24,000 nucleotides of DNA. Source: Cyanobacteria bacterium J06635_1. GTDB taxonomy: Bacteria > Cyanobacteriota > Cyanobacteriia > Phormidesmidales > Phormidesmidaceae. Of this stretch, positions 4,279 through 22,012 are shown piece by piece (the stretch's first letter is position 1; each line of letters starts with the position of its first letter). The stretch lies in the NCBI GenBank assembly GCA_039820425.1, contig JBCBQD010000032.1:8637-32636 (forward strand). The letters are read 5' to 3'. A model generated the notes under the pieces. It searched no databases. It was not told the DNA's origin and was given only the letters and a program-made list of their open reading frames with translations. The position numbers were made by a program, and so were the translations under genes.

Positions 4279-4410
4279 AGATTTTGATAGAGGGAAGATG
4301 GGGAAGATGGAGTAGGCGGACACGGAAATAGGGAGACGCAGGGACGCGGAGAGGTAGGGGCTGGCCCAGTGCGGCGGCTCGGCTGAGCTCGCAGAAGACC
4401 TACCATCTCT
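4279..4410 (+). repeat. Post-stop purine-arm/pyrimidine-arm element (HAD-like gene 3' flank)
   Basis: Begins right after the stop at 4276-4278. Contains the tandem GGGAAGATG x2. The left arm AGATGGAGTAGG (4305-4316) is near-complementary to CCTACCATCTCT (4399-4410). Confidence 0.55.
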
Positions 4411-4475
4411 GAAGTCAGTTAAATACGGAGAAACACCCTATAGGGCAAGCATTTCGCCTGCCAGAGGAAAGATCG

Positions 4476-5849
4476 ATGCTGGATCTAACTAAACTAGCTA
4501 TCCAAATGCAGGGCATCAGCAAGCATCTTGCCAAGGAAGCTGAGGCAGCCCAGCGGCGCATCAAAATTGCCCATACCCTGTTGCAACAAGCCACCCCTCG
4601 TCATGCTGAGCTAATCGAGCAGCTTTACGACTATCGCCCCCAGCTAGGCTTTACCGTTGCTGAACCGATCGAGCCGCTGGATACACGCATTGCTCTCTCC
4701 CCAGCCCCTGAGACCCACACCGTTCTCGCCACCGATGGTTCGCAAATCAACCCCAGCCACCACGAGATTGCCTACTGCTATCTGCTCAACGTCGGTCGTG
4801 TCATCTTGCACTACGGCCAGAGTCGCTACCCGCTGCTCGATAGCCTACCCGAGGTGATCTATCGCCCCGAAGATCTCTACGCCTCACGGCAATGGGGCAT
4901 TCGCACCGAAGAGTGGATGGGATATCGGCGGACAGTGGCAGAGGCTGTGGTGTTGGCGGAGATGGCGCAGGAGATAGGAGATAGGAGTCAGGAGTCAGGA
5001 GAGGGGAAAGGGCGAAAGGCGAAGGGGGAAGGGCGAAAGGGAGCAGAGGGGGCAGAGGGGGCAGAGGGGGCAGAGGGGGCAGAGGGTCTCCTGTCTGCCC
5101 AAGCCACCAGTATTGATAAGAGAAATTCGGTACTCACCCGTCCCCACCTCCCCACCTCCCCACCTCCCCACTCAAAATCCAAAATCCCCTCCCTCGCCAT
5201 GACGGATGGCTCCTTGATCTACTGGTTCCTCGACCAGATGCCTGCCGCGGCGAGGGACTGCATCCTGGAGCCCATACTCGCTGCGTGGGATCAGCTTAGG
5301 CAAGCACAGGTGCCGATTGTGGGCTATATCAGTGCGTCGCGCAGTGGTGAGGCGCTGAACTTTTTGCGATTGCAGAGCTGCCCTTTTGATGGCCCAGACT
5401 GTGCCACGCACTGCGAGGGGCAAACGGACGGTGCGCCCTGTCAGGTGTTTTCGCCGCTGCGGGATGTGACACTGTGGTCAGCGTTGCTGCAGCCAGGGGA
5501 AAGGGGACCGATCTTCAAAAGCTCAGCGGATATTTTGCAGCTTTACGGGGAAAATGCCATCTATTTTTGTTATGTGCATGTGGGTTCAGAGATAGCACGG
5601 GTTGAGTTTCCTCAATGGGTGACAGAAGACACTGTTCTGTTGGACACGGCCCTGGGGTTAACCCTGACTCAAGTTCAAAAGGGATATGGGTACCCGGTGG
5701 CGCTGGCAGAGTCGCACAATCAGGCGGTGGTGAGAGGGGGCGATCGCAACCGCTTCTTTGCCCTACTTGAGCAACAAATGATTAAAGCGGGTTTGCAAAA
5801 TGTCGGCACCTCTTATAAAGAGGCACGCAAGCGGGGCAGCATTGCCTAG
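4476..5849 (+). CDS. NurA-domain-like nuclease (conserved cyanobacterial protein) carrying an in-frame repeat insertion
   Basis: 457-aa ORF. The blocks VLATDGSQINPSHHEIAYCYLLNVG and AMTDGSLIYWFLD, plus GYGYPVALAESHNQAVVRGGDR, match my recollection of NurA-type (RNase H-like fold) proteins. aa 166-240 are low-complexity sequence encoded by the repeat cassette. Confidence 0.6.
   Translation: MLDLTKLAIQMQGISKHLAKEAEAAQRRIKIAHTLLQQATPRHAELIEQLYDYRPQLGFTVAEPIEPLDTRIALSPAPETHTVLATDGSQINPSHHEIAYCYLLNVGRVILHYGQSRYPLLDSLPEVIYRPEDLYASRQWGIRTEEWMGYRRTVAEAVVLAEMAQEIGDRSQESGEGKGRKAKGEGRKGAEGAEGAEGAEGAEGLLSAQATSIDKRNSVLTRPHLPTSPPPHSKSKIPSLAMTDGSLIYWFLDQMPAAARDCILEPILAAWDQLRQAQVPIVGYISASRSGEALNFLRLQSCPFDGPDCATHCEGQTDGAPCQVFSPLRDVTLWSALLQPGERGPIFKSSADILQLYGENAIYFCYVHVGSEIARVEFPQWVTEDTVLLDTALGLTLTQVQKGYGYPVALAESHNQAVVRGGDRNRFFALLEQQMIKAGLQNVGTSYKEARKRGSIA
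4971..5195 (+). repeat. Composite short-tandem-repeat cassette inside the NurA-like ORF
   Basis: Read directly. The modules in order are (GGAGATA)x2, (GGAGTCA)x2, GGGCGAAAGG-type G-rich modules, a 9-nt unit GCAGAGGGG x5 (5043-5086), about 50 nt of unique sequence, (CCCCACCT)x3 (5142-5169), (CAAAATC)x2, and CCCCTCCCTCGCC. The length is 225 nt, or 75 codons. Confidence 0.9.
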
Positions 5850-5889
5850 GGCCAAAAATTCTGTACAGGTGTGTATATAAAAGTTTTCT

Positions 5890-5908
5890 ATCAAAAATAT
5901 TTTTTGAT
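5890..5908. promoter_or_regulatory. AT-rich inverted repeat ATCAAAAA-N3-TTTTTGAT
   Basis: Read directly in the 407-nt spacer upstream of the PstS-like gene. Function is inferred only. Confidence 0.2.
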
Positions 5909-5965
5909 CACGAAAAAACCTTTGAAAGGTATAGATGACAAGGTTTTTGACACAAAATGACAACT

Positions 5966-19480: not shown

Positions 19481-19915
19481 TTAACGCAGACCATACAGAC
19501 TCATAAAGAACAAAAACGCGATGCCCAGAGCCCCAAAAATTAGAATATTTTTTTGACCCGGTGTCAGGGTATTGACGCCCAACCCATAGCCCAGGTTTTC
19601 CTTAAAACCTGACGGAGTCCCCTTGGGGCCAACATTGCTAAATTGGCGCTTACGCGCACCGCAGACCGGGCACCGCCAATCATCCTCCAGGTCCTCAAAG
19701 GGAACCCCCGCCGCAATCCCACCCTGGGAATCCCCTTTGGCCGGTTCATAGACATAGCCACAGGCACGACACTCGTGGCGATCCATTTCTTGGGGCGTTA
19801 AGGGCTTTTCGGGTGTTTCAGCATCGGGCGAGGTTGTCTCAACCAGCTCAGCCTGGGCAATTTCAGCGGCCGACTCACCAGCGTCAAGTTTAGAAGGATC
19901 TGACTCGATATTCAT
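19481..19915 (-). CDS. rubA: Membrane-anchored rubredoxin RubA
   Basis: Rubredoxin core with [10 protein letters not shown]...[13 protein letters not shown] (two CxxC pairs) and a C-terminal TM helix [20 protein letters not shown]. The acidic N-terminal 43 aa may not be translated. An alternative start is Met44 at 19786. Confidence 0.9.
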
Positions 19916-20186
19916 TGGAATCTATGGGATGCGGTCTTTGAGGTGCAGGGTTACAGCCATGAGTAAATCCCAGGACGGGACTATTCTCAATGGGTTCAAT
20001 TTCGAATCCTTATTCGGTTACTCACAAGCAACCTATCTAAAGCCTGCTGTGTTCTACTAGAATAGTAACGTTGTAAACAATTATTACATAAGCCGTCCCC
20101 CTTTCTCATTTTGATGGGCCTGTCCTCTGGGTTAGGATGAGCCTTGGCAAGACGATTACAATAAATCGAGTAGGTTAAGGTTTAAC

Positions 20187-20549
20187 GTGTTTGTTTTAAG
20201 TGGCTACGAGTATTTCCTGGTCTTTTTATTGATATGCAGCTCGATCCCTATCCTGGCACTCACCGCCTCAAAGCTTTTGAGGCCCGTGGGGACAGGGGCT
20301 GCCCGACGCACAACGTATGAATCTGGCATGGAGCCCATTGGCGGTGCCTGGATTCAGTTCAATATTCGGTATTACATGTTTGCCCTGGTCTTCGTCATTT
20401 TCGACGTGGAGACCGTTTTTCTATACCCCTGGGCAGTCGCTTTCAGTAAACTCGGCCTGTTAGCCTTCGTCGAAGCCCTAATTTTTATTGCAATTCTTGT
20501 GGTTGGTCTAGTCTACGCCTGGCGTAAAGGAGCATTGGAATGGTCATGA
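20187..20549 (+). CDS. ndhC: NAD(P)H-quinone oxidoreductase subunit 3 (NdhC)
   Basis: 120-aa ORF with a GTG start. Motifs: [40 protein letters not shown]. Confidence 0.95.
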
Positions 20550-21277
20550 ACCCCACCTCGAGCAGCCCATTGGTCGGGTCCGATGAGCGGATTATGAATC
20601 CGACGGCTCCGCCCACGGTGACCCAGGACCTGTCTGAAAACGTCATTCTCACCACCGTTGACGATCTTTACAACTGGACCCGGCTGTCTAGCTTGTTCCC
20701 GCTGCTTTATGGCACGGCTTGTTGCTTTATCGAATTTGCGGCGCTGCTGGGCTCTCGCTTTGACTTTGATCGCTTTGGTTTAGCGCCCCGGTCGAGCCCC
20801 CGTCAGGCCGACCTGATTATCACAGCGGGCACCATCACCATGAAAATGGCCCCGGCCCTGGTGCGCCTTTATGAGCAAATGCCCGAGCCCAAGTACGTGA
20901 TTGCCATGGGCGCTTGCACCATCACTGGCGGCATGTTTAGTGTTGACTCTCCGTCTGCGGTGCGGGGCGTGGATAAGCTGATTCCGGTGGATGTCTATAT
21001 TCCTGGCTGCCCGCCCCGACCCGAGGCGATCTTTGACGCCGTCATCAAGCTGCGCAAAAAGATTGCCAACGAGTCGATGCAAGAGCGCGGTGCCCTACAG
21101 CAGGTCCATCGCTACTACACCCGTGACCACAAGATGAAGGCCGTCGAGCCCATTTTGACCGGGAAGTATCTCAACTCAGGCACCTGGGCAGCGCCCCCTA
21201 AGGAACTCACCGAAGCCATGGGCATGCCTGTCAACCCTGCTTTGGACGAGGTCAAGGAGGAAGTCACCAATGGCTGA
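20540..21277 (+). CDS. ndhK: NAD(P)H-quinone oxidoreductase subunit K (NdhK)
   Basis: 245-aa ORF with the Fe-S ligand blocks [20 protein letters not shown] and [10 protein letters not shown]. The start is either ATG 20540 or ATG 20546. The second gives an ATGA overlap with the ndhC stop. Confidence 0.95.
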
Positions 21278-21824
21278 AGAAGACGTCAAGCCAAACTCAG
21301 AGCCGACTAATGAGGCAGCAAACTCGGACGAGGCCAGCGCCATTGTCGAAGCAGGCCCGGTCTCAAGCTGGCTCAGCGAACAGGGATTTAGCCACGAAAC
21401 CCTGGAACCTGACCACCTTGGTCAAGAAGTCCTAAAAGTCGAGCCCGCCTTCTTAATTCCCTTTTGTACGGCGCTCTATGCCTACGGATTTAACTACTTG
21501 CAATGCCAGGGGGCCTATGACGCTGGCCCGGGGCAGCCATTGGTGAGCTTTTACCACCTGATCAAAGTCAGCGACAACGCCGACACCCCTGCCGAAGTCC
21601 GCATCAAGGTCTTTTTGCCCAGAGATAATCCCAGGGTGCCCTCGGTCTATTGGATCTGGAAGTCCGCCGACTGGCAAGAACGTGAAAGCTTTGACATGTA
21701 TGGCATCTATTACGAAGGCCATCCTAATCTTAAGCGCCTGCTCATGCCCGAAGACTGGGTAGGCTGGCCCCTGCGAAAAGACTACATTTCGCCTGACTTT
21801 TACGAGTTGCAAGACGCGTATTGA
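21270..21824 (+). CDS. ndhJ: NAD(P)H-quinone oxidoreductase subunit J (NdhJ)
   Basis: 184-aa ORF overlapping the ndhK stop by 8 nt (ATGGCTGA). Motifs: [32 protein letters not shown]. Confidence 0.95.
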
Positions 21825-22012
21825 AAAGGCGAAAGGGCGAAGGGGGAGTTGATTCCGCTCCAGGAATAGCGTTCAACTTAAGCCAGGGACTCCAGACTGC
21901 GTCAGGAGTCAGGAGTCAGGAGTCAGGAGTCAGAACGAGAATGGATCTGGCTACGCTAGCACCCCTCACCCCATAGTCCAAGGAGCATGGCTTCGCCCTT
22001 CCCCTTTCGCCC
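21825..22012 (+). repeat. Post-stop purine-arm/pyrimidine-arm element with a (GGAGTCA)x4 core (ndhJ-psaL spacer)
   Basis: Starts at the base after the ndhJ stop. The left arm is AAAGGCGAAAGGGCGAAGGGGGAG (21825-21848). A heptamer array lies at about 21903-21932. The right arm CTTCGCCCTTCCCCTTTCGCCC (21991-22012) is imperfectly complementary to the left arm. Confidence 0.75.

Follow-up and report, generated by a model that had tools for sequence, protein, structure and literature searches.

Short-repeat hairpins behind cyanobacterial stop codons and their proposed turnover by slippage and recombination between arms

Why should five genes in one short stretch of a cyanobacterial genome each be followed, in most cases flush with the stop codon, by a purine-rich tract of short tandem units and, further downstream, by a pyrimidine-rich tract? 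The stretch analysed, referred to here as the window, comprises 24,000 nucleotides of Cyanobacteria bacterium J06635_1 (contig JBCBQD010000032.1, positions 8,637 to 32,636), and the elements, designated E1 to E5, follow the HAD-like gene, the DUF4912 gene, nfu, serS and ndhJ, respectively. To our knowledge cyanobacteria lack Rho, and the elements bear on the question of how transcripts are terminated and protected in such organisms. Many cyanobacteria contain heptamer-repeat hairpins in abundance. The explanation towards which we lean, with modest confidence, is that the elements are inverted arrays resembling the short tandemly repeated repetitive (STRR) sequences, that is, hairpins at gene 3' ends that would have been inflated and turned over by slippage and by recombination between their arms. 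New here are in-place inversion and wholesale turnover at orthologous slots, a slot being the space between a stop codon and the conserved block upstream of the next gene.

The source genome was examined through the 24-kb window alone, which holds six elements, five of them intergenic. The host belongs to a marine, filamentous, non-heterocystous, Leptolyngbya-like lineage, and its closest sequences are marine metagenome-assembled genomes named "Cyanobacteria bacterium P01_..." (SerS identity 91-95%), with Leptolyngbya sp. SIO4C1 at 87% and Adonisia and Leptolyngbya PCC 7375 at ~80%. Syntenic loci from relatives (L081, L082, L083, L084, L085, L086, L126 and L127-L130) were compared with the window; L081 and L082 are possibly from related samples. 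At the DNA level, serS of the window is 89-91% identical to that of L081, L084 and L126, with 93% identity between L081 and L084 and ~83% against L083. Tandem arrays were called by Tandem Repeats Finder (TRF) at a score of at least 30, and weaker arrays down to a score of 29 were noted separately. Because G-rich and C-rich arms will always pair to some extent, whatever their origin, arm duplexes were compared with duplexes in which the 3' arm alone had been shuffled, which removes the effect of purine/pyrimidine composition, and additionally with 150 random genomic windows. Simple counts of purine/pyrimidine runs and a 6-mer seed detector were abandoned, being too noisy or blind to E3 and E6 (the sixth element, described below).

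All five loci reported in an earlier note on this DNA were confirmed at their coordinates, as were the distances from the stop codons: the arms begin 0, 27, 0, 0 and 0-3 nt after the stop for E1 to E5, where the note had given 0-3 nt for four genes and ~28 nt for the DUF4912 gene. The stem-loops that it had expected in the 3' flanks are also there, E2 to E5 being imperfect stem-loops with a purine-rich 5' arm, a pyrimidine-rich 3' arm and loops of 30-140 nt. Its claim of complementary arms holds for E2 to E5, which exceed the 3'-arm shuffles (z -3.25, -2.4, -4.6 and -4.5, respectively), but not for E1 (z -1.1); arm complementarity is thus specific in the former and absent in the latter. Whole-element RNA folds gave z-scores of +1.08, -1.08, -3.41, -2.34 and -4.19 for E1 to E5, and random windows paired as well as the element in 50/150 cases for E1, 13/150 for E2 and 0/150 for E4. 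The elements of L081 also pass the arm-only shuffle, and the pairing of the L083 nfu element does not exceed what shuffled 3' arms give. Arrays of 7-nt units occur in E2, E4, E5 and E6, and 8-9-nt units as well in E1, E5 and E6 (TRF). The short tandem repeats described earlier are therefore real, but their copy number is low (2-5) and E3 holds only a weak array (TRF score 29). The recurring modules are likewise real but short: copies within the window match over 18-19 nt, and matches to the other loci compared extend over ≤33 nt.

How these slots are filled in relatives differs from gene to gene. At the nfu slot a hairpin is present in 8/8 genomes, made from about five unrelated sequences. The window and L126 have E3 in common; the L126 copy shows the heptamers GGTGATA and CCTAAAA, carries 15 extra nt (two heptamer units) in its 5' arm, and has received in its loop a 235-nt insertion (~269-503) with terminal inverted repeats CTGACACATCT...AGATGTGTCAG, for which an E-value scan of L126 against Rfam gave no significant match (chance matches only). 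L081 and L084 have in common a short GC hairpin in which one base pair has undergone a compensatory change (G-C to U-A), L083 has arrays of the GGGTAGT/CCCTAAC type, L085 an unrelated 16-bp stem (z -3.6), L086 a further unrelated hairpin, and L127 a canonical terminator consisting of a stem plus T-tract. Constant presence of a hairpin combined with freedom of its sequence is the mark of a 3'-end structure under selection, and the comparison points to selection for a hairpin at the nfu slot only.

The serS slot tells a different story. Elements of the GGGCGAAAGG type fill it in L081, L126 and L083, and between L081 and L082, whose SerS proteins are identical, a one-unit indel of 7 nt is the sole difference in 501 nt. 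Over its whole length the L126 element (1917-2085) matches that of L081 (3186-3350) in reverse complement, with a local alignment score of 143-144 when inverted versus 40 when direct. This is an in-place inversion, as arm-to-arm recombination or template switching would predict. In the window, the base of the outer stem has been kept around an interior of the GTAGTGG type. In L084 the element is absent, TAAGGGAG joining GTAGAAT directly, and in more distant relatives the slot measures ~28 nt and has no hairpin. E4 would accordingly be dispensable, because the slot is without a hairpin in L084, L127, Adonisia and PCC 7375. We also observed that in L126 the synteny with rseP breaks immediately 3' of the element in this slot, with AT-rich unrelated DNA continuing to the contig end.

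The remaining slots are no more stable. Compared with its L081 ortholog, E5 has kept its arm ends and right flank and has had its centre replaced; E1 is absent from L085 and L086, where the HAD spacers are 64 and 19 nt; and E2 is absent from the spacer downstream of DUF4912 in L083. The comparison with close strains proposed in the earlier note thus reveals presence/absence polymorphism, at the serS and HAD slots. Direct duplications span two stops, one imperfect and 26 nt long at the HAD-like gene of the window (4244-4294) and one of 10 nt at ndhJ of L081 (CGCGTATTAA x2, L081 12946-12965), and both look like local slippage. Judged from these alignments, the elements are lineage-specific slot fillings that change much faster than synonymous sites, by changes in unit number, whole-element deletion, interior replacement, in-place inversion and nested insertion in the loop. 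Since sister genomes offer unrelated hairpins, one inversion, one deletion and one nested insertion in one slot, a slippage-plus-recombination model and an "any hairpin will do" model are directly testable.

The consistent placement against stop codons, which the earlier note had listed among the features that it could not assign to a named element, is explained by the geometry of the slots. The stop codons of nfu, serS and ndhJ lie at conserved positions across the relatives compared, and on the right the elements are bounded by conserved blocks (CTGCTATCCTGATTTACTGG..., CCAGAACGGTAGAAT... or AATTTTGTACTTTTGTT...). Conservation of the right-hand block was measured at nfu-serS only, where the block (10785..10843, + strand) has 58/59 bases identical to L081 (98%), against 74% identity at the third codon positions of serS in the same pair. 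In the serS-rseP block (12235..12296, + strand), CCAGAACGGTAGAAT holds TAGAAT, which resembles a -10 promoter hexamer, and GAACGGTAGAAT is kept out to Adonisia and Leptolyngbya PCC 7375. The elements therefore occupy the sole unconstrained slot of compact spacers, between the stop and the conserved downstream block, and it is because they fill this slot that they abut the stop codon. The nfu-serS block also contains a 16-mer, GATTGGCTGAGGAAAT, in tandem at 10809-10840, just 5' of the serS start (x2 in the window and in L081/L084, x4 in L126); its conserved sequence makes it a possible regulatory site of the serS leader.

In the mechanism we propose, a purine/G-rich array of 7-9-nt units followed by a complementary pyrimidine/C-rich array would form an imperfect hairpin between the stop and the promoter or 5'-untranslated-region block of the next gene. 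The trait visible to selection would be the mere presence of a hairpin where the mRNA ends, serving to terminate transcription or to hold off 3' exonucleases, and this at some slots only: at nfu-type slots the hairpin would serve the mRNA 3' end, while at serS- and HAD-type slots it would be dispensable. The build-up of repeats would be a by-product of DNA-level instability, either neutral or self-reinforcing. Replication slippage would alter the number of units, and template switching or recombination between the arms would maintain complementarity and could flip the element, a flipped purine arm...pyrimidine arm (R...Y) hairpin remaining R...Y.

This last property changes how the purine-first polarity is to be read. 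The earlier note had taken it as a feature of the sense strand, yet it is no gene-orientation signal, because the reverse complement of an R...Y hairpin is R...Y again and the layout is identical on both strands. The valid contrast is between the R...Y and Y...R classes, whose ratio is 12:0 in the clade (window, L081, L083 and L084; ungapped inverted-repeat scan, some copies being orthologous) and 5:0 in a stricter duplex scan that also takes in L085 and L086. The ratio is 39:38 in other cyanobacteria and 63:32 in non-cyanobacteria, the latter being mostly canonical terminators (A-tract, stem, T-tract). The purine-first class bias is real in this clade, and a share of it stems from ordinary bidirectional terminators. 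Counts of 80:77 and 73:65 led us to reject a "keto-first" or "G-first" rule that would hold generally for the inverted repeats of cyanobacteria. Mismatches in the stems bear no RNA-strand signature (8 of G.U type versus 10 of A.C type), and the antisense strand of E2 to E4 folds as well as the sense strand or better. Both strands fold about equally, and the pairing works at the DNA level.

Individually, the five elements, all on the + strand, are built as follows. Downstream of the HAD-like gene (stop 4276-4278) the purine tract begins at once; taken in full, the purine-rich tract of E1 (4265..4346) covers the last four codons (EGKE) and the stop, includes the array GGGAAGATG x2.1 at 4292-4310, and is unpaired with any downstream arm. 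It is followed by a local 12-bp hairpin (4347..4411), in which GGAGAGGTAGGG pairs with CCTACCATCTC around GC-rich inner stems, present in both the minimum free energy and centroid structures. The C-terminus of the HAD-like protein is 4 aa longer than in L085/L086, and the purine array has overrun the ancestral stop and added the four codons EGKE. E2 begins at 8612, after a 27-nt gap from the DUF4912 stop (8582-8584), with a purine-rich 5' arm (8612..8689) that includes GGGGCGAAGGG at 8622-8632 and GGGGAAGGGCGAAAGGG at 8665-8681; its 3' region (8748..8806) consists of AATCCAA x4.6 and then the pyrimidine arm TCTCCCCTGCCCCTTGACCCCTTCGCCC. The stem of E3 (10672..10774, -35.1 kcal/mol) begins at G10672, the last base of the nfu stop (10670-10672), and a C-run continues to 10784; no array reaches a TRF score of 30 here, the weak one being CCTAGAA x2.6. 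E4 (12121..12234, -44.5 kcal/mol) likewise begins at the last stop base, G12121 of serS (stop 12119-12121), and its arms are made of GTAGTGG x2.3 and CTCTACC x4. E5 (21828..22011, -81.9 kcal/mol) follows the ndhJ stop (21822-21824), with the 5' arm GGCGAAAGGGCGAAGGGGGAG, the 3' arm CTTCGCCCTTCCCCTTTCGCC, an array of GAAAGGGC x2.9 and an internal GTCAGGA x4.7 at 21901-21933, and is the only one of the five with a T-rich tail (AATTTTGTACTTTTGTT). An orphan pyrimidine array, CCCACTCA x3.5, is situated at 9509..9536 (+ strand), 3' of the hairpin at 9445-9483, a canonical terminator that follows the DUF937 gene; the matching spacer of L081 and L084 holds different pyrimidine arrays.

The count of five in the earlier note was too low, as the modules GGAGTCA, GGGCGAAAGG and CAAAATC are also found in a sixth element, E6 (4968..5200, + strand), which forms an in-frame part of the NurA gene (coding sequence 4476-5849). 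It consists of the purine arrays CAGGAGA, GGAAAGG and AGGGGGCAG x5.4, followed by TCCCCACC x3.9 and CAAAATC x2.1, and encodes a low-complexity linker, GEGKGRKAKGEGRKGAEGAEGAEGAEG...PHLPTSPPPHSKSKIP, from a purine block and then a pyrimidine block. The Pfam NurA match runs over residues 81-419 against a profile of 254 positions, and the linker, to which E6 adds residues, is variable in all relatives, where it is built from different repeat units. Pairing between the arms of E6 is compositional only (z -1.75 versus 3'-arm shuffles). That arrays of this kind are tolerated in frame in the disordered NurA linker would follow from the absence of stop codons in purine-only and pyrimidine-only arrays.

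Several observations weigh against slippage and arm-to-arm recombination acting on selected 3'-end hairpins. The role at mRNA 3' ends is one that we infer from sequence. E2 to E4 have no U-tract, although canonical terminators exist in the window (17373-17418 and 22758-22779 by consensus scan, and 9445-9483). E1 has no long stem and is not significant as a long hairpin, the serS slot does without one in the four lineages named above, and the strict purine/G-first class bias is not accounted for. The relatives are metagenome assemblies, in which hairpins and repeats may be mis-assembled. Finally, unit families recur across slots and genomes (GGGCGAA, GGGTAGT, GGAGTCA, CAAAATC, GGAAGATGG), which pure in-situ slippage does not predict and which hints at copying between loci. 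Such copying would be expected if non-autonomous mobile elements, similar to MITEs (miniature transposable elements with inverted repeats), repetitive extragenic palindromes (REP/REPIN) or small dispersed repeats (SDRs), moved from locus to locus by inserting next to terminator hairpins or within them, an explanation that we regard as unlikely but that several findings would suit. GGGTAGT occurs at the serS slot of the window, the nfu slot of L083 and the NurA linker of L083, and GGGCGAAAGG in E2, E5 and E6 and in elements of L081, L126 and L083; the serS and HAD slots vary in presence and absence, the interior of E4 has been replaced over a kept outer-stem base, one copy (E6) is inside a gene, and the separate 235-nt insertion with terminal inverted repeats in L126 means that such loops do receive insertions. 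However, the segments common to loci are ≤33 nt and are tandem modules only, never cores (blastn), with no consensus of body or termini. No target-site duplication was found at E3, E4 or E5, and the direct duplications at stop codons do not flank elements. Orthologs differ by unit numbers and in-place inversion rather than by clean insertion or excision, and no transposase or REP-associated tyrosine transposase (RAYT) gene was present among the window open reading frames (ORFs) scanned. The selfish elements envisaged in the earlier note thus lack their expected marks, namely a conserved body, consensus terminal repeats and target-site duplication.

Other readings give more weight to the strands or to termination itself. 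Most transcription-unit ends of Synechococcus elongatus are not canonical terminators (PMC12642595), and according to the BATTER paper (2026), C-rich signals resembling Rho utilization (RUT) sites overlap 3' stem-loops in filamentous cyanobacteria; one may speculate that the C-rich 3' arms described here are among the signals scored 'RUT-like' in that survey. The purine-first hairpins could be a functional non-canonical 3'-end signal in Rho-less cyanobacteria, with a C-rich 3' arm as the 'RUT-like' signature read by a factor, renewing themselves by recombination between the arms (flip-flop inversion and slippage) and representing a cross-phylum class of rapidly evolving terminators, a proposal to which we give little credence. 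Slightly less probable again is that the arrays owe their action to the separate G-rich and C-rich strands and not to Watson-Crick hairpin pairing, as non-B DNA or RNA structures (G-quadruplex/i-motif, triplex, R-loop) or as protein-bound arrays with the C-rich 3' arm as the 'RUT-like' signal. The BATTER signals, the bias that hairpin stability alone leaves unaccounted for and the in vitro formation of G-quadruplexes by such G-rich repeats (Rehm et al. 2015, PMC4692102) speak for it, as do the G-quadruplex motifs of the window, which are almost confined to E2 (+ strand 8656-8681, - strand 8781-8805) and E6 and are convergent on the two strands. The window scan found no canonical motif in E1, E3, E4 or E5, however, Nostoc arrays laid out in this way have units without G-richness (e.g. 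AGTCATT/AAATGAC), the register-specific pairing of arms in E2 to E5 exceeds composition, and no binding factor is known. The literature on intrastrand triplexes (PMC4666352) proved not applicable. Ordinary but long intrinsic (Rho-independent) terminators are an improbable explanation: although the elements are located where terminators sit, L127 has a canonical one at the nfu slot, AATTTTGTACTTTTGTT follows E5, and the purine-first polarity is like the A-tract/stem/U-tract of canonical terminators in this clade, the loops are long, E2 to E4 have no U-tract, E6 is inside coding sequence, and 0/5 elements were called by the consensus scan that finds 17373-17418 and 22758-22779. It is very improbable that unrelated low-complexity tracts resemble hairpins by chance or composition. 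The failure of E1, E6 and the L083 nfu element to pair better than with a shuffled 3' arm, and the whole-element z of E2, would be expected of such an artefact, but the arm-only shuffle is passed by the L081 elements as well as by E3, E4 and E5, the two classes stand at 12:0, 4/5 elements begin 0-3 nt from the stop, and the layout recurs in unrelated contigs (described below). An artefact is largely refuted for E2 to E5 and stands for E1 as a long hairpin.

The surroundings of the elements contain ndhC-K-J, psaL, psbEFLJ, ycf48, rubredoxin, serS, an nfu-type gene, rseP, nth and rpsN, together with the NurA-domain gene, the DUF4912/PBP gene, the HAD-like gene, mnmG and the DUF937 gene. No Rfam family matched the window at gathering score, and neither tRNA nor tmRNA genes were found in it. 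Between the convergent 767-aa gene and psbJ, a near-perfect hairpin with 29-nt arms and A- and T-tracts (17365-17426) looks like a canonical bidirectional terminator; this form is also present in L081 and L083, though made from other sequences. Just upstream, a 35-codon hydrophobic ORF, MDTSLLPQVMVPIVAIHAFAFMIAMFLYVEQEETT (17251-17358, + strand), is conserved in L081 and L083, where it is not called as a gene; its match to PsaI is weak and below the cut-off (E 2e-4). The DUF4912 protein (6257-8584) is fused to a PBP-like domain, and its gene contains in-frame DNA repeats, a 15-mer x2.7 at 7191-7230 and a 21-mer x3.6 at 8039-8113; DUF4912 proteins have been termed 'Rho-like' in a 2026 paper, for an N-terminal Rho domain. 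A perfect 18-nt tandem duplication, TAAAATATCTCGAACACT x2, is found at 626-661, just 3' of the end of mnmG, and in the divergent rubredoxin/ndhC region of L083 (14600-14650) a G-rich 15-nt unit, GGGGAAAGGCGGTCT, is present three times with no inverted partner and not at a gene 3' end.

Set against described systems, the elements can be placed, contrary to the earlier view that no named class fitted them, among STRR-like inverted short-repeat arrays, and the likeness to STRR heptamers noted at that time was right. These heptamers were reportedly described from heterocystous cyanobacteria by Mazel and colleagues in 1990, and the consensus units of STRR1-3 are CCCCAGT, TTGGTCA and CAACAGT. As in STRR, tandem units, of 7 nt in some of the elements, occupy intergenic DNA and are highly variable between close relatives, and in the Nostoc loci compared they take the form of an array plus its inverted complement flush with stops. 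The units of the window differ in being 7-9 nt long, G/purine-rich and present in few copies, and its host is non-heterocystous. Tandem dimers of these STRR1-3 units are absent from the window in any rotation on either strand; TGACCAA and CAACAGT are present in Nostoc loci. The layout of array plus inverted array was detected (TRF, inverted-unit pairing) in loci of Nostoc, Oscillatoria, Microcystis, Spirulinaceae and Leptolyngbya PCC 7375. Where the flanking gene could be placed, the array starts -2 to +6 nt from the stop in Nostoc/Spirulinaceae and at +19 nt in one Oscillatoriaceae locus; one inverted heptamer array lies directly 3' of a Nostoc serS, and some arrays are wedged between two convergent stops. 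A metagenome scan with one 21-nt module retrieved 39 contigs, mostly of GC 0.58-0.71, and in several of these a stop is followed at once by a long R...Y hairpin (z -2.9 to -9.7). The module GGCGAARGGGRAAGGGCGAAR of these contigs (L087-L125) often forms near-perfect purine-first hairpins flush with stops (e.g. L087, L095, L119, L121) and also occurs inside coding linkers (L108, L098, L107).

The small dispersed repeats of Nostoc and MITEs such as Nezha, reportedly treated by Elhai and colleagues in 2008, are similarly small and intergenic with inverted ends and are often embedded in heptamer arrays; the elements described here have no conserved body, terminal consensus or target-site duplication. 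The REP sequences of proteobacteria, including bacterial interspersed mosaic elements (BIMEs) and REPINs, are likewise imperfect palindromes located outside genes, on their downstream side; they are credited with stabilising the 3' ends of mRNAs and are sites of genome instability. REPs, however, conform to a consensus for the whole family, with a GTAG/CGTC head and an associated RAYT transposase, whereas here there is no consensus and shared modules are ≤33 nt. By analogy, the inverted repeats at chloroplast mRNA 3' ends and Rho-independent 3'-end hairpins would be comparable in following the stop directly and needing no U-tract, and in combining free sequence with kept structure as at the nfu slot, although those hairpins are short and not repeat-built. 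A further match is provided by the G-rich heptamers (GGGNATC / GGGGAYT) of Xanthomonas and Nostoc PCC 7120 described by Rehm et al. (2015, PMC4692102). Most of these are on the coding strand within 0-50 bp of the preceding stop, which a few overlap, and each Xanthomonas genome contains 70-75 inverted pairs of them in convergent arrangement. They share with the window both the position of the array and, for E2 to E5 but not E1, a convergent G-rich then C-rich pair able to form a stem-loop. Their unit sequences differ, only E2 and E6 here have canonical G-quadruplex motifs, for which four or more G3 runs are needed, and the Rehm loci are more conserved than controls between two Xanthomonas species, whereas the slots of the window turn over completely. 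As the layout recurs across cyanobacterial loci, metagenome contigs and the loci of Rehm et al., the architecture is widespread and already described, and the elements are not a new kind but a local version of the heptamer-repeat hairpins known from Nostoc and Xanthomonas.

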